This document shows, one piece after another, positions 32,508-57,686 of a DNA stretch of 64,000 nucleotides. The stretch's first letter is position 1. Each line of letters starts with the position of its first letter. Below the pieces are notes generated by a model, which had not been told where the DNA came from, did no database searches, and worked only from the letters and a program-made list of their open reading frames with translations. The stretch is from the sequence record PQ671645.1; one strand, written 5' to 3'. Position numbers and translations under genes: made by a program. The DNA comes from Escherichia phage DCP548.

Positions 32508-32782
32508 TTAAAATATTCTCGTAGTTGGTCAAATCCACCAATGTGACTTCCGTCAGGAGCAAACACTTGAGGCATAGTCAATCCGACTTGTGATTCACGT
32601 CCAAGCTTAACCAGAAGCTCAGCAATTTTCTCATCGTCAAACACACCTTTTTCTGGCATAACATTAATGAATTCAAATGGCTGTTTCTTAACAGTCAGCA
32701 ATCGTTTCGCATTATCACAATAAATGCATTTATGAATAGTAGAGTCATACCCGTACACTTTAAACATTATTTTTCCTTTCAT
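32504..32782 (-). CDS. nrdC: thioredoxin/glutaredoxin NrdC
   Basis: FKVYGYDSTIHKCIYCDNAKRLL...GGFDQLREYFK matches remembered T4 NrdC; track start likely a few codons too long. Confidence 0.88.
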   Translation of the reverse strand: MKGKIMFKVYGYDSTIHKCIYCDNAKRLLTVKKQPFEFINVMPEKGVFDDEKIAELLVKLGRESQVGLTMPQVFAPDGSHIGGFDQLREYFK

Positions 32783-33173
32783 CGATTAAATATGCAACGC
32801 CAAATACAATACATGTAATAAAACCTGTGATACAGATAGAAACCAACAACACTGTACCAAAGAACCAAATCAAGTTATCTTTAGTAGTTTGTTTGATATC
32901 CATCTCACGAATTTCTATAGCTATCGTATCACCTTTATTCAGAAGCGTATAAAACGATGGCGATACACGCCTGTCAAAAACTCGTCCTTGCTCATCTTTA
33001 TAGACTGCAATAAATTCTAATTTAGAATATTTTCCTGTAGATTGGCCTGAGATTAATTCCACTACCTCCACAGGAATTACTTTAGTTTCCATGTAAGTAT
33101 TCTGGCTGTTCCAAATGAATGGAATAATAGTAAAAACTAAAGCTGCGATAAAACAACGAAGGCTATATCTCAT
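32760..33173 (-). CDS. membrane protein
   Basis: 137 aa with N- and C-terminal TM segments. Confidence 0.45.
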   Translation of the reverse strand: MRYSLRCFIAALVFTIIPFIWNSQNTYMETKVIPVEVVELISGQSTGKYSKLEFIAVYKDEQGRVFDRRVSPSFYTLLNKGDTIAIEIREMDIKQTTKDNLIWFFGTVLLVSICITGFITCIVFGVAYLIDERKNNV

Positions 33174-33478
33174 TATAATGTTCTCTCAAATTTGTGGAAG
33201 CATTTACGGCATTTCAATTTCAAGTTATCAGTGGTCCAGTTAACCAGTTGGACTTGGATAGTTCCACATTCCGGGCACGGATGTTTTGCTGCCGATTTGG
33301 CAGCATTTTCACGTCGTTCAACCATTTTCATTATTTCGTTCCATGCCGGAGGAACGAACTCTTCTTCAACGTGGATTTTATCTCGCTGAACAAATTCAAT
33401 CTTTGAACTATCGTCAATAAACTTAACCAAACCGTGATTAGTGTTCATATCAATATCCTCTAAAAGACGTAGTTTCAT
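33173..33478 (-). CDS. putative zinc-ribbon protein
   Basis: 101 aa; CPECG...CRKC pair. Confidence 0.45.
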   Translation of the reverse strand: MKLRLLEDIDMNTNHGLVKFIDDSSKIEFVQRDKIHVEEEFVPPAWNEIMKMVERRENAAKSAAKHPCPECGTIQVQLVNWTTDNLKLKCRKCFHKFERTL

Positions 33479-34422
33479 TATAAAACCTCAATGGCATTTC
33501 GTAAACCATCAGCTTTTGCATTCAGAGCTTTTAATGATTTAGTTTGTTCTGCAATCTGGGCTTCGACTTCTTTCAGGCGAGATTTGAGATATTCGCGTTC
33601 TTCTCTTAAGTTATCAACTTTTTCTGCTTTAGGCTCTTTAATAGGCTTATACTCGTTAGGGTTCTTCAACTTAATTTGAATGCGAGAACTGTATAACATT
33701 GAACCATTATCTTCGGTTTCATCATACATTTCTACCACGTCCATGATTCTTAACATCATGCGAAGTTTATAAGACAGCGAACGAATGGTTTTGTTGTGCT
33801 TATTAATTTCTTCGGCTTTCATGGTACCGAGATTACGTGAGTAGTAATAAGGAACCTGGATATCAATTGATAACGATGCGGTACCATTACCTGTTGGTTT
33901 GAACACTGCAGTAACCCAATCTTTAGCATGAACTGTATTTGTACGATCATCGCCACCTGTGAATAATTTACGTGAATGTTTAAAAAGCATATTCACTTGG
34001 TTATTGAATTCACAAGCAAATTTATCAGCAAATTTAGTTTCAGGAATGGTAGATAACCAATCAGCCAAATGAGTCTTTTTAACATCATTAACAATAGTGA
34101 ATTCAACCAAATCGGTTTTAGATGTCACAGATTTAATAAAGCTCGGCTTCATAAAGTTTTTAATGTTATCGCGAGCTACAGTAGAAGATAATAAACGAGA
34201 ACGTTTGAACCATTGAAGCAGTGTCCCTAATGAATGAGAATATGCATTCTGAGTATCTTTACAGATATGATTTTCTTGGCCTGTGTATGTACCAAAATCG
34301 CGAAGAATACCACTTACTACAACTCGGTGTGGAACATCAAATCCTAATGAACCAGAAGCACGTTGGGCATGAACGTTAGCGATAAGACCTGCAAAATAAT
34401 CAATGTAATGTGAACGTGTCAT
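33478..34422 (-). CDS. hypothetical protein with C-terminal coiled coil
   Basis: 314 aa; heptad-rich C-terminus; own promoter upstream. Confidence 0.5.
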   Translation of the reverse strand: MTRSHYIDYFAGLIANVHAQRASGSLGFDVPHRVVVSGILRDFGTYTGQENHICKDTQNAYSHSLGTLLQWFKRSRLLSSTVARDNIKNFMKPSFIKSVTSKTDLVEFTIVNDVKKTHLADWLSTIPETKFADKFACEFNNQVNMLFKHSRKLFTGGDDRTNTVHAKDWVTAVFKPTGNGTASLSIDIQVPYYYSRNLGTMKAEEINKHNKTIRSLSYKLRMMLRIMDVVEMYDETEDNGSMLYSSRIQIKLKNPNEYKPIKEPKAEKVDNLREEREYLKSRLKEVEAQIAEQTKSLKALNAKADGLRNAIEVL

Positions 34423-34450
34423 AATATTTTCCTCTCGTTAAGATAGAAAG

Positions 34451-34480
34451 ATTATACTCCAACCATCCTTGGTTGTAAAC
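34451..34480 (-). promoter_or_regulatory. early promoter with palindromic spacer
   Basis: Minus GTTTAC, aaCCAAGGATGGTTGGag, TATAAT. Confidence 0.55.
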
Positions 34481-34484
34481 TGAT

Positions 34485-35420
34485 TTATGATTTTAATGCA
34501 TTCATTGCGTTAAAAAGTTTAGAGTACTGCAACTGGAGCTTGGTAACTACTTGTTGAGCATCACGAAGCTTAGCTTGTGCTTTGTCAAGTTCAACAGACA
34601 GTTGGTCCACAGTGGCTTTGATTTGATTATAATAGTAATCTTCGGCAGGAAGAAGACCGTTAGAGATTTCCAGTTTAGTCGACGGTGAAGTGTATATAGA
34701 TGGAGCAGTAAAATATGCACCTTGAACTTCAGCATTGCCAATTGGGGTTGTAGTAATTGACGCTTCGAACGTTGCATTTTCCTTTTTAAGATTTTGATAG
34801 TATTCAGAGTCTTTGTGCCACCATGGCGCAGGAACCTTTTTACCAATAGATACACGAGCCTGGATAGCGATATGACCCTTATTCTTGATAGGGTTGATAA
34901 TATTAAGCTCACGAGAATAAATTGCTTTAATCTGGTGGATATTATCACCTAACACTTCCAACGCTTGGTGGAATACACGAGCAACGTTATCATTCTTAGG
35001 TTTATACGTAAGAGTGAACTCGTTCTCACTGATAACCATGATTTCTAACTTATCGTAAGTATATTTCAAATGTTTCATGTTAATTGCTTGAGGACGAATA
35101 CGAGAAGCAATGGCCATCAGATTGTTAAGGTTATTCCTGAACTGCTTAGCGAAATATTGTCCTTCACCGCCAATACAAAAATTACGAAGTTTCTGTTTGG
35201 CTAATAAACGGCTGAACTCACCATTTTTAATGAACTCTTTAACGGGTGTGTTAGTAACGCATTCAAATTGAGTAAACTTACGAGAATTAATCCCATAATA
35301 TGAACAGATTTCCTCAATCTCTTCAGGAGTCTTTACAGGCATACGGATAGGATTAGGTCCTGGGGTATATGCGTTCGAGGTAAATTCTTTGATAAGTTCT
35401 CTACGTGTAATAGAAGCCAT
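34485..35420 (-). CDS. hypothetical protein with C-terminal coiled coil
   Basis: 311 aa; own promoter upstream. Confidence 0.5.
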   Translation of the reverse strand: MASITRRELIKEFTSNAYTPGPNPIRMPVKTPEEIEEICSYYGINSRKFTQFECVTNTPVKEFIKNGEFSRLLAKQKLRNFCIGGEGQYFAKQFRNNLNNLMAIASRIRPQAINMKHLKYTYDKLEIMVISENEFTLTYKPKNDNVARVFHQALEVLGDNIHQIKAIYSRELNIINPIKNKGHIAIQARVSIGKKVPAPWWHKDSEYYQNLKKENATFEASITTTPIGNAEVQGAYFTAPSIYTSPSTKLEISNGLLPAEDYYYNQIKATVDQLSVELDKAQAKLRDAQQVVTKLQLQYSKLFNAMNALKS

Positions 35421-35446
35421 TTTATATTCCTCATGTTGAAAAATTT

Positions 35447-35476
35447 ATTATACTCCAACCATCCTTGGTTGTACAT
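35447..35476 (-). promoter_or_regulatory. early promoter with palindromic spacer
   Basis: Minus ATGTAC, aaCCAAGGATGGTTGGag, TATAAT; near-copy of the 34451..34480 element. Confidence 0.5.
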
Positions 35477-36471
35477 CATTCCTTAAGAAGTTTTACTACC
35501 TGAATAAGATTAGCTCGTTCTGTTTTATTTTTACTGTTTAAGCCTGCTAATCGTGAGATTTCATCGTCAGTCTGTTGAATAGTTACATTAAGTTCGTTAA
35601 TCAAAGCTTCAAAGTATTTGATTTGCTCAGCATGTTTTGATTCGAATTTCTGAACCGGAATAACGTCTTGGTTTAGTTCATCAATAAGGTCTTTAAGAGC
35701 ATCTTCTTGGTTGATATCATATTCAACTTCTTTTATTTCTTCAACGAGCTCGTCTTTATATCTAACGTCTTTTAGTCCTGGTGCTGGTCCTGAAATCTCT
35801 TCTTTAAGAGTACAAACATATCCAATACGGTATCCAATGCTGTCTCGCTTGATATCAACTTCGTCAATAAATCCACAATGTTTAAGACCAGAGCCGATTA
35901 GGTCAAAATATCCTTGACGTCGTCCTTCAAACGTTACACGAACTACTAAGACAGTTTTACCTGCGACCTTTTGAAGCTCACATTTATAAAAGTCTGTTGA
36001 ACCTGAATAACGTGGATGAGTTTTAAAGTTCATCTGACGATCTAGGCCCATTTGTAAGCGTGCTGATACGGCCATAAAACGTGTTTGATTCTCGTTAAGA
36101 TGAGCAACAATCCATTTCAAAGGCATTTTACACTGTTCACGACCGAACAAATCAGTACGTCCTAGATTACGCAGGATGTTGTTAGAGTTAATCATCGACA
36201 GAACGTTAAGTTTATTCAGCGCGCTGAAGATTCCATCGGCCATTGATTTTCCGTAACCTTTACACGCTTTAATAAGCGCTCGTGGTAGGTTAGTATAGAT
36301 TTCAGACGGCATATGAAAATCAAATTTACTAGTCAGTAATTGATGAACTTGGATAGCAATTTGCTCATAATTAAGTGCTCTGCGATCATTATGGTCTTTA
36401 AACCACACTTTAATCTGTGAAGCACATAAACCGTTAATTTCATGTTTTACCGCATCAGATGTAATGCTCAT
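35476..36471 (-). CDS. hypothetical protein with C-terminal coiled coil
   Basis: 331 aa; own promoter-like element upstream. Confidence 0.5.
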   Translation of the reverse strand: MSITSDAVKHEINGLCASQIKVWFKDHNDRRALNYEQIAIQVHQLLTSKFDFHMPSEIYTNLPRALIKACKGYGKSMADGIFSALNKLNVLSMINSNNILRNLGRTDLFGREQCKMPLKWIVAHLNENQTRFMAVSARLQMGLDRQMNFKTHPRYSGSTDFYKCELQKVAGKTVLVVRVTFEGRRQGYFDLIGSGLKHCGFIDEVDIKRDSIGYRIGYVCTLKEEISGPAPGLKDVRYKDELVEEIKEVEYDINQEDALKDLIDELNQDVIPVQKFESKHAEQIKYFEALINELNVTIQQTDDEISRLAGLNSKNKTERANLIQVVKLLKE

Positions 36472-36533
36472 AACTATTTCCTCAGATTGAATTGGAACTC
36501 AAAACCATTATAACCCGTCCTTGGGTAAAGCGT

Positions 36534-37061
36534 TTATGCGTGAACCGTCTTTAAACGTTCTTCAAATTTCCGAAGAGTACTAATACGTTCTGCTTTCTGT
36601 TTTGTATAGTTTGCAATACGTTCTGAAGTGAGAGCGTATCGTTCATTTACTGTTTCTTTCATGAAGTCAGGGATTTCACGAGAAGCTTTAATTTCGTCAA
36701 ACTTGTCGAGTACTGCCTGGTCTTCAGCGATTAAATTTTCGTACATCTCGATATCTTTCTTGATAAACTCGATATCTTCCTGGGTTACTTTGGATAAACG
36801 AGATGCTTTATCCTTTTTGTACTGCTCGTTAGTTTCACGAGACCAGAATAATGTACGTTTTTTGTTAGTGTTTTTGTAGACTTCCACAATTCCAACTGAA
36901 TCGATGATAGCAATCCAATTCCAGCGAGATTTGAAAATCTGACCTCCGTCCACGGTAATCTCGTTACCATAAGCAACGTCATTAAAGAACTTGCTTTGTG
37001 CTTCAGATTTAAATTTACCGTCGTTATAATTTACCAGGTTGAAAATATCTTTAGCGTTCAT
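36534..37061 (-). CDS. hypothetical protein
   Basis: 175-aa minus ORF; early promoter upstream. Confidence 0.5.
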   Translation of the reverse strand: MNAKDIFNLVNYNDGKFKSEAQSKFFNDVAYGNEITVDGGQIFKSRWNWIAIIDSVGIVEVYKNTNKKRTLFWSRETNEQYKKDKASRLSKVTQEDIEFIKKDIEMYENLIAEDQAVLDKFDEIKASREIPDFMKETVNERYALTSERIANYTKQKAERISTLRKFEERLKTVHA

Positions 37062-37084
37062 GTTTTACCTCCAGTAGTTGATAG

Positions 37085-37117
37085 GTCTATAATAACATAA
37101 CTATAGACCTTGTAAAC
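37085..37117 (-). promoter_or_regulatory. early promoter with inverted repeat
   Basis: Minus GTTTAC, spacer, TATTAT; inverted repeat GGTCTATA/TATAGACC. Confidence 0.5.
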
Positions 37118-56970: not shown

Positions 56971-57123
56971 TATTTCAACGTCACCTTTAGCTGCTTTATA
57001 ACCTTCAGCCCAAGATACAACAGAGTTTTTATCTGAGGATTCAAATTCAGGCATTGGACTTTCACCAATATTCACACAGTATGTTTCTTCATTTTCATCG
57101 AACCAAATAATTAAAGTAGTCAT
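56959..57123 (-). CDS. hypothetical small protein
   Basis: Track ORF trimmed to ATG at 57123 (MTTLIIWFDENEE...) with GGAG RBS; upstream part of the track frame covers the promoter. Confidence 0.4.
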   Translation of the reverse strand: MTTLIIWFDENEETYCVNIGESPMPEFESSDKNSVVSWAEGYKAAKGDVEIIYI

Positions 57124-57140
57124 TTTGTTTACTCCTCTGT

Positions 57141-57180
57141 AGTTGATAAGTCTATAGTAACACCGTCCTTGGCGTTTGTA
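57141..57180 (-). promoter_or_regulatory. early promoter variant
   Basis: Minus ATGTAC, spacer, TACTAT; shares CCTTGG core with the 34451 and 35447 elements. Confidence 0.4.
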
Positions 57181-57182
57181 CA

Positions 57183-57686
57183 TCATTTATTTTTAATTTT
57201 GCAAATTTTTTCTGCTTCAGCAATTGCAGCGTCAATGATGCTTTGTGCAATTTTATTACTAGTTGACCTGGCAATCACACTAAGAACAATTTCTTTTTCT
57301 TCACCACCCCAACCCCAAGTCCTTTGTTCGTGGGTACCTTTAACTACAGCTGAAACTTCAACAGAACGTCCACCATCAGAAGTTTTAACATCTACAACCC
57401 AATCACCATCTTTCTCTTCTACCCTTGATTTATCCCAAGAAATACTAATATATGATTCACTGTCAATAGAAGTCGCCGGGTTTTTCTCTACCGTAAGACC
57501 TTCACTTTCCAGCCATTCAATAGTATTTGCGCATAAATCAGAAGAACACCTCATCGGAAACCGGCAAGATTTTTCACCTTTAGATGCTGCATCGTACATC
57601 TTTTCTAAAATACGCTTTTGCACGTTTTTAAAAATAGTTTCAGCGGATTCTTCGGATTTTTTATTCAGTTCAGTATAAAGACTCAT
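57183..57686 (-). CDS. hypothetical protein
   Basis: 167-aa minus ORF; early promoter upstream. Confidence 0.45.
   Translation of the reverse strand: MSLYTELNKKSEESAETIFKNVQKRILEKMYDAASKGEKSCRFPMRCSSDLCANTIEWLESEGLTVEKNPATSIDSESYISISWDKSRVEEKDGDWVVDVKTSDGGRSVEVSAVVKGTHEQRTWGWGGEEKEIVLSVIARSTSNKIAQSIIDAAIAEAEKICKIKNK

Follow-up and report, generated by a model that had tools for sequence, protein, structure and literature searches.

The best-described counterpart of the locus reported here is nrdC.5 of bacteriophage T4. A T4 clone with deleted accessory DNA had lost nrdC.5, was viable and failed to plate on E. coli ECOR17 (PMC9391042). nrdC.5 supplied in trans restores plating of the deletion mutant on cells carrying Dsr1, the sirtuin defence of that strain (PMC9391042). 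Other genes of the same region act on other defences: OLD is the target of gp49.2 (PMC13096335), and Septu and Druantia III are inhibited by nrdC.1 and bas37_0203, respectively (bioRxiv 10.1101/2025.11.20.689424). Here we analyzed a 64,000-nucleotide stretch of Escherichia phage DCP548 (PQ671645.1), hereafter the window, in which the open reading frame (ORF) list shows three tandem ORFs of 331, 311 and 314 residues at 33478-36471 on the minus strand (g1, g2 and g3). They can be assigned as nrdC.6, nrdC.5 and nrdC.3 of an RB69-like T4-type phage, all named and long-catalogued genes, and we take the locus to be, most plausibly, one portion of an anti-defence island. We lean towards a reading in which nrdC.6, nrdC.5 and nrdC.3 belong to an anciently duplicated, divergent superfamily of dispensable, soluble binders of immune proteins.

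The genes neighboring the locus encode endonuclease VII, the NrdC thioredoxin, the AAA-type protein NrdC.10 and the nucleotidyltransferase NrdC.11. Together with a G+C content of 36-38%, they point to a T4-type phage. A megablast search with positions 33000-37100 returned 636 phage records, the best being Mosigvirus (RB69-like) coliphages at 96-99% identity, which identifies the window as a Mosigvirus genome. In RB69 the collinear genes are annotated, in identical order, as nrdC.6, nrdC.5 and nrdC.3. The g2 protein matches DUF7235 over profile positions 1-307 of 307 (376.8 bits, cut-off 30), as T4 NrdC.5 does with 420.6 bits (5e-126), and the T4 protein also falls in phrog_2351. Furthermore, g2 is 96% identical to RB69 nrdC.5, matches T4 NrdC.5 by phmmer in a local set (E 3e-8) and lies between nrdC.6 and nrdC.4/nrdC.3, as in T4-type genomes. 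For g1, the match to phrog_2257 has an E-value of 2e-127. T4 NrdC.6 belongs to the same families (phrog_2257, PF26899), and PF26899 is precomputed on a 331-residue product identical to g1 and on 107 relatives. The g3 protein, 58-59% identical to T4 NrdC.3, matches phrog_1435 (E 8e-105), which also takes in T4 NrdC.3 and NrdC.4. PF26897 likewise covers NrdC.3 and NrdC.4 and is recorded on the 316-residue homologues of g3 in HX01 and SQ17. An earlier note on this DNA had described an accessory locus. The genes are not orphans, being the annotated nrdC.6, nrdC.5 and nrdC.3 genes, found in hundreds of genomes; their accessory rather than core character is borne out, with one to four copies across phages and T4 viable without nrdC.5 (PMC9391042).

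Pairwise BLASTP among the three proteins gave no significant match (E 0.18-2.8), in agreement with the little obvious sequence identity seen earlier, and the proteins fall into three separate Pfam and PHROG families. Both results would be expected of unrelated ORFs that happen to be adjacent and have in common only a similar size and a generic coiled coil, with no shared ancestry or mode of action. Convergence yields coiled coils easily, and the NrdC.6 profile has no significant match among the others. Profile comparisons speak against such a chance assembly. Using hhalign with profiles built from 9-114 family members, NrdC.3 matched NrdC.4 with a probability of 97.8% (E 1e-12) over 210 N-domain columns, and NrdC.4 matched NrdC.5 with a probability of 88-91% (E 1e-6 to 4e-6). 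Both matches lie in the N-terminal domain and not in the tail. NrdC.6 aligns colinearly with the others on a motif of the form LSxxNxxxILxNxG ... helix ending A-x-R-L (LSxxxAxxxLxNxG ... A-x-R-L/I).

A structural link was found through the BFVD viral predicted-structure library. A Foldseek search with the AlphaFold model of g1 recovered NrdC.6 proteins first, and then uncharacterized proteins of 300-346 residues from other T4-type genera (E 1e-7 to 5e-4), namely from Enterobacter phage IME523, Acinetobacter phages fHyAci03, Acj9, 133 and Acj61, Klebsiella phage Mineola and Serratia phage CBH8. The 326-residue Mineola entry was matched by both the g1 model (E 1.2e-4) and the g2 model (E 1.4e-3), the latter of low quality, so that its fold-search matches are weak support. 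In the Mineola genome the only nearby gene for a 326-residue protein is gp080, which occupies the nrdC.3 position and abuts an nrdC.2-like gene. Gp080 matches a merged NrdC.3/4/5 profile by hmmsearch (E 6.5e-16) and by hhalign (95%, E 2.7e-8). The Mineola protein would thus bridge NrdC.6, by predicted structure, and NrdC.3/4/5, by sequence. Phage Acj9 encodes a 325-residue protein of the same architecture (Acj9p122) between gene 49 and nrdC.10; it gave no sequence-level signal and is not counted as homology evidence beyond its Foldseek match. The common ancestry of NrdC.3, NrdC.4 and NrdC.5 is well supported by the profiles, and that of NrdC.6 with them is probable but unproven. The Mineola bridge, the identical order of secondary-structure elements in g1 and g2 and the related promoter cassettes ahead of each gene, both described below, also argue against unrelated ORFs, an explanation that we consider unlikely.

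The AlphaFold models of g1 and g2 show the same element order, with six or seven helices, a β-β-α-β-β unit and, after a disordered linker, a helix at the C terminus. The plan of an N-terminal domain followed by a heptad tail, proposed from the sequence alone, therefore stands in these two models. The g1 model has a predicted local distance difference test (pLDDT) score of 69.8, with values above 80 for N-domain residues 1-145, whereas the g2 model, from an alignment of 35 sequences, reaches only 46.9. The C-terminal coiled coils announced for all three proteins are evident in g2 and g3, where hydrophobic residues occupy 93% and 86% of the a/d positions of unbroken heptads and none of 2000 shuffles reached either value. 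The tail of g1, modelled as two helices with a break, scores less well in a single heptad register (151 of 2000 shuffles). The tails are better conserved than the N-domains. NrdC.6 is 61% identical to its Tequatrovirus counterparts in the tail versus 32% in the N-domain; the corresponding values between this phage and T4 are 70% versus 58% for NrdC.3 and 40% versus 30% for NrdC.5. The g3 tail is 70-85% identical to those of T4 and RB6. No enzyme or DNA-binding domain was detected in g1, g2 or g3, and sequence searches of the PDB with all three families and T4 NrdC.5 returned no match.

Some reference sequences are damaged in this part of the protein. T4 NrdC.6 (L001 10067-10894) ends early, at 275 residues versus 295 in other Tequatroviruses, and RB69 NrdC.5 (L011 7001-7903) has a frameshift before the coiled coil. 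The reference-strain sequences therefore misrepresent these proteins.

Hundreds of genomes in the genera Tequatro-, Mosig-, Dhaka- and Gaprivervirus carry homologues, and the repertoire varies from phage to phage. T4 carries four copies in a row (nrdC.3 to nrdC.6), this phage and RB69 three, VR7 and JS10 also three (nrdC.4, nrdC.5 and nrdC.6), and the Mosigvirus ESCO47 two, with NrdC.5 absent. In ACG-C40 (L012 5805-6213), a deletion has left, beside nrdC.6, a 71-residue N-terminal stub of nrdC.5 and the part of nrdC.3 that codes for the 70 C-terminal residues; nrdC.4 is gone entirely, as are the greater parts of nrdC.5 and nrdC.3. The proteins that flank the locus are 78-92% identical to those of T4 (gp49 90%, NrdC 92%, NrdC.8 83%, NrdC.10 78%), and for NrdC.3, NrdC.5 and NrdC.6 the identities to T4 are 58%, 32% and 37%, respectively; g1 is also 37% identical to RB6 NrdC.6. 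Three allele classes of NrdC.3 were found in Tequatro- and Mosigviruses, with identities to g3 of at least about 90%, of 78% and of 56%.

The g2-type NrdC.5 is limited to 132 Mosigvirus records and forms a class separate from the T4 type, as tblastn did not connect the two. A word-indexed homologue search with g2 alone found only relatives at least 84% identical, a related-locus search with the NrdC.3 alignment returned only seven loci, and an exhaustive phmmer search of g2 against 1.84 billion representatives gave only three matches. One of the three is a 3071-residue protein matching g2 residues 223-283 in 16 stretches (E 1e-18). We regard this match as spurious and presumably due to low complexity or repeats. 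A Shigella sonnei hypothetical protein deposited on a 68-kb contig is identical to g2; this bacterial assembly therefore contains DNA of this phage, possibly through contamination or a carrier state.

Within Mosigvirus, the ratio of non-synonymous to synonymous substitution rates (dN/dS) is 0.06-0.27 for g1, g2 and g3, similar to that of their neighbors. The three genes are thus maintained by purifying selection, and gene-wide positive selection has no support. Between ESCO47 and this phage, NrdC.6 and NrdC.8 are 70% and 79% identical, respectively, with dS saturated. The large differences look like the product of whole-allele replacement and mosaicism. In HX01 (L021, JX536493, 3999-5500), Mosigvirus-type nrdC.6, nrdC.5 and nrdC.3, identical or nearly identical to the window, are followed by T4-type nrdC.2/nrdC.1 instead of nrdC.2/nrdC.7, so that a mosaic junction falls exactly where nrdC.3 ends. 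Calling the locus diversifying is apt for copy number and alleles, which vary between phages, and not for short-term evolution, with no pervasive positive selection.

Presence or absence and allele replacement are also expected of genes whose products are sensed by host defences, in which case variability and loss would amount to escape from recognition, and the broken tails of laboratory strains could be escape mutations. This would fit poorly with the benefit that T4 nrdC.5 brings to the phage on Dsr1 hosts and with the long-term retention of three or four copies in hundreds of genomes, which argues for a benefit. We consider it very improbable that some of these proteins are such triggers.

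The proteins might alternatively serve host takeover or physiology, for example as oligomeric scaffolds modulating nucleotide or nicotinamide adenine dinucleotide (NAD) metabolism, the nucleoid or transcription, with only an indirect effect on Dsr1. The genes lie amid nucleotide metabolism (nrdC, nrdD/G, tk) and are kept under purifying selection in most Tequatro- and Mosigvirus genomes, and the Dsr1 rescue is genetic only. Such a role is made unlikely by the loss of these non-essential genes in laboratory evolution without growth cost on K-12 (PMC9391042), by the defence-specific phenotypes of several close neighbors, by an inter-genus divergence that is extreme relative to the metabolic neighbors and by the lack of a detectable enzyme or DNA-binding domain. 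One of those neighbors, bas37_0203, was located in MZ501089 as a 175-residue NrdC.8 orthologue, a name not used in the preprint; membership of the nrdC.3/5/6 families is thereby ruled out for this protein. A PADLOC search found nothing.

We return to the immune-antagonist reading that we favor. NrdC.3, NrdC.4, NrdC.5 and NrdC.6 would be ancient, now strongly divergent duplicates within one phage protein superfamily, each expressed from its own promoter in the early to middle stage of infection and dispensable in the laboratory. On the most economical mechanism, each would act as a soluble binder and not as an enzyme. The variable N-terminal domain would directly recognize a host immune protein, and the better-conserved coiled coil would oligomerize, or dock to a common partner, so that oligomeric defence proteins would be bound with greater avidity. 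Within the superfamily, NrdC.5, g2 included, may neutralize Dsr1, a SIR2-type, NAD-degrading defence, and NrdC.6 and NrdC.3 may neutralize other defences.

Several observations weigh against this reading. The NrdC.6 profile did not match those of NrdC.3/4/5 significantly (hhalign E 0.012-0.23, probability at most 4%). The Foldseek matches have low template modelling (TM) scores, 0.26-0.40, with a g2 model of pLDDT about 47, and the BFVD entries were equated with Mineola gp080 and Acj9p122 by organism and length only. In the literature searched, nrdC.3, nrdC.4 and nrdC.6 were not linked to any anti-defence phenotype. T4 nrdC.5, the sole member of the group with a phenotype, has no published biochemical mechanism, and g2 shares only 32% identity with its product. 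A dN/dS below 0.3 gives no direct short-range sign of an arms race, and the broken tails of laboratory strains indicate only that phages can do without the tail under laboratory conditions.

Each of the three genes is preceded by a promoter-like site of its own (Table 1), as the earlier note had it, and by a GAGG-type Shine-Dalgarno sequence 7-9 nt ahead of the ATG. The sites do not form a single type. Those of g2 and g3 are predicted early sigma-70-type promoters fitting the T-even early consensus TTTACW-N17-TAYWAT (PMC4122927). They are indeed near-copies, differing by one base in 29 nt (35447-35475 and 34451-34479), with no other copy in the window and none expected by chance. The pattern GTTTAC-N16-19-TATAAT occurs five times in the window against 0.06 expected. 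The site upstream of g1 has no sigma-70 -35 hexamer. It conforms, with one departure (C for T), to the MotA-box rule, (a/t)(a/t)(a/t)TGCTTtA located 12 +/- 1 bp from a TAtaaT -10 (PMC2988021), and it aligns with copies in T4, VR7, JS10 and ESCO47. For the T4 copy, upstream of nrdC.7-nrdC.6, the start calculated from the sequence is 53325, equal to the mapped start of the middle promoter PnrdC.7 (53325; PMC2988021 Table 1). The g1 promoter thus appears MotA-middle-like and the counterpart of PnrdC.7. In T4, nrdC.7 (L001 10902-11303) lies between nrdC.8 and nrdC.6; the gene for the NrdC.7 membrane protein lies between nrdC and nrdC.2 in RB69 and here (32760-33173, minus strand). With nrdC.7 relocated next to nrdC, the PnrdC.7-type promoter directly precedes nrdC.6 in this phage and would drive it.

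All three promoters share a hairpin in the spacer, so the palindromic spacer noticed earlier is real. A core CCA-AGGA-TGG sits between the upstream element and the -10, and CCAAGGAYGG occurs four times in the window against 0.07 expected. In four genera, a hairpin of 4-8 bp with an invariant AGGA loop precedes genes of the nrdC.3, nrdC.4, nrdC.5 and nrdC.6 (nrdC.7) kinds. Its flanking stem bases are complementary and change in compensating pairs across phages, with AACCA/TGGTT in this phage, AGCCA/TGGCT and CCACA/TGTGG in T4, ATCCA/TGGAT in JS10, ACCCA/TGGGT in ESCO47 and TATACCA/TGGTATA in T4 PnrdC.7. Over 13 distinct variants, 91% of cells are paired versus 63% after shuffling (0 of 500), the covariation score is 0.64 versus 0.16 (0 of 500), slid controls give 19-42%, and one base pair occurs as four Watson-Crick types; the variants share ancestry, and the structure itself was deduced from them. 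The hairpin starts 5-10 nt past the upstream stop codon and would thus be present in read-through transcripts.

The hairpin is the least explained part of the locus. Rfam gave no match. An intrinsic terminator was rejected given the short stem, the absence of a U-tract, a folding energy of only -6.9 kcal/mol and z-scores of -0.5 to -1.5. An operator for a dimeric protein is unlikely because the flanking positions covary between paralogous promoters of one genome. The element may act in RNA, as a 3'-end or processing signal, or may serve as a site of recombination or regulation. A fourth promoter and hairpin cassette, TGTACAaacgCCAAGGACGGtgttacTATAGA, lies at 57122-57186 on the minus strand, ahead of an unrelated small ORF probably starting at 57122. 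The cassette is therefore not specific to the nrdC.3/5/6 family and is a general repeated regulatory module of this phage.

We put forward a wider, more speculative reading tentatively and regard it as rather doubtful. NrdC.3/4/5/6, with structurally similar proteins of about 300-350 residues that T4-type phages of Klebsiella and probably of Acinetobacter carry at this locus, would form a single ancient, hyper-divergent and modular family of immune antagonists. The tail would provide common oligomerization or docking, the N-domains would be swappable for each defence, and the AGGA hairpin would mark a cassette, as a 3'-end or processing signal on read-through RNA or as a recombination site, through which paralogues are exchanged, duplicated or deleted as units.

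Table 1. Features of the nrdC.6/5/3 locus in the window, with positions given on the window numbering.
Feature	Position	Strand	Description
g1	35476..36471	-	331-residue NrdC.6 homologue; Pfam PF26899 Phage_T4_Y05B; phrog_2257
g2	34485..35420	-	311-residue NrdC.5 homologue; Pfam DUF7235 PF23882; phrog_2351
g3	33478..34422	-	314-residue NrdC.3 homologue; phrog_1435; Pfam PF26897 Phage_T4_Y04OP
g1 tail, residues 279-331	35479..35637	-	Helices 281-308 and 315-330, broken at AGLNSK (AlphaFold)
g2 coiled-coil tail, residues 260-311	34488..34643	-	Helix 259-310, pLDDT 70-84 (AlphaFold)
g3 coiled-coil tail, residues 267-314	33481..33624	-	Heptad a/d hydrophobic fraction 0.86
g1 promoter	36507..36535	-	MotA-box-like aaaCGCTTTA 36535-26, 13-nt spacer, -10 TATAAT 36512-07; predicted start about 36500
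g2 promoter	35447..35475	-	TGTACA-17-TATAAT, 10/12 match; predicted start about 35440
g3 promoter	34451..34480	-	GTTTACA-17-TATAAT (TTTACA 11/12 match); predicted start about 34444
g1 spacer hairpin	36526-13	-	4 bp, ACCC/GGGT; from sequence
g2 spacer hairpin	35471-35456	-	CAACCA-AGGA-TGGTTG; RNA hairpin -6.9 kcal/mol
g3 spacer hairpin	34475-34460	-	As in g2 promoter
NrdC.8 homologue	36534..37061	-	175 residues, directly upstream of g1; 83% identical to bas37_0203 of MZ501089

That these genes are named in T-even-type phages was known already, as was the anti-defence role published for one of the three families; no such role is published for the other two. The analysis adds an argument for one NrdC.3/4/5(/6) superfamily whose members keep a conserved tail, extends that superfamily to further T4-type genera through predicted structures, and describes the hairpin that covaries inside the promoters. 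T-even phages are the main model of phage counter-defence, and within four years four anti-defence genes have come from the nrdC island. Should nrdC.3, nrdC.4, nrdC.5 and nrdC.6 be paralogues on one scaffold, the only known phenotype, that of nrdC.5 on Dsr1, becomes a concrete hypothesis for at least three orphan genes in hundreds of therapeutic-candidate coliphages, and their naturally occurring variants in specificity would help to study how phages disarm a sirtuin defence. The g2 allele is so far from that of T4 that its target range may differ, a point relevant to predicting host range. In a very well studied transcription system, the covarying hairpin poses a small regulatory question that lends itself to direct testing.

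The closest described protein is T4 NrdC.5 (UniProt Y05A; DUF7235; Srikant, Guegler & Laub 2022, eLife, PMC9391042). The g2 protein belongs end to end to the same Pfam and PHROG family, from the same locus position and with the same plan of N-domain and coiled coil. In contrast, its identity is 32% overall (30% in the N-domain), it is 29 residues shorter and lacks two insertions, and neither tblastn nor library-scale phmmer connects the two proteins. By family, synteny and the RB69 annotation, g3 and g1 are orthologues of T4 NrdC.3/NrdC.4 (PF26897) and NrdC.6 (PF26899), whose T4 ORFs are uncharacterized. Unlike T4, this phage has no nrdC.4, and g1 has an acidic insert of 36 residues ahead of its tail, which is full-length here and lost from the T4 copy. 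The T-even anti-defence cluster around nrdC (gp49.2, NrdC.1, the NrdC.8 orthologue bas37_0203 and the Lon inhibitor Pin) resembles the locus in its position on the same island, its early or middle expression and its small, non-essential genes with host-dependent phenotypes. The cluster proteins are unrelated in sequence to g1, g2 and g3, and in the group of about 300 residues only NrdC.5 has a phenotype. A functional analogy for NrdC.5 is offered by DSAD1, an inhibitor of DSR2 from an SPbeta-group phage reported by Garb et al. in 2022. Both are phage proteins that would neutralize a SIR2-domain, NAD-depleting defence; DSAD1 comes from a different phage group and is likened to NrdC.5 by function alone. 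Finally, the promoter-early stem-loop cassettes (PeSLs) of T4-type phages (Arbiol 2010, PMC2839356; Comeau 2014, PMC4122927) are, like the elements found here, repeated intergenic units that combine a TTTACW-N17-TAYWAT promoter, a short stem-loop and a Shine-Dalgarno sequence in a hyperplastic region, beside variable genes. The stem-loop of a PeSL lies just upstream of the early promoter (PMC4122927 Fig. 3 legend). We did not retain the spacer hairpin as a PeSL, since its stem-loop lies within the promoter spacer, from the -35 or MotA box to the -10, with a fixed AGGA loop and a stem that covaries over four genera.

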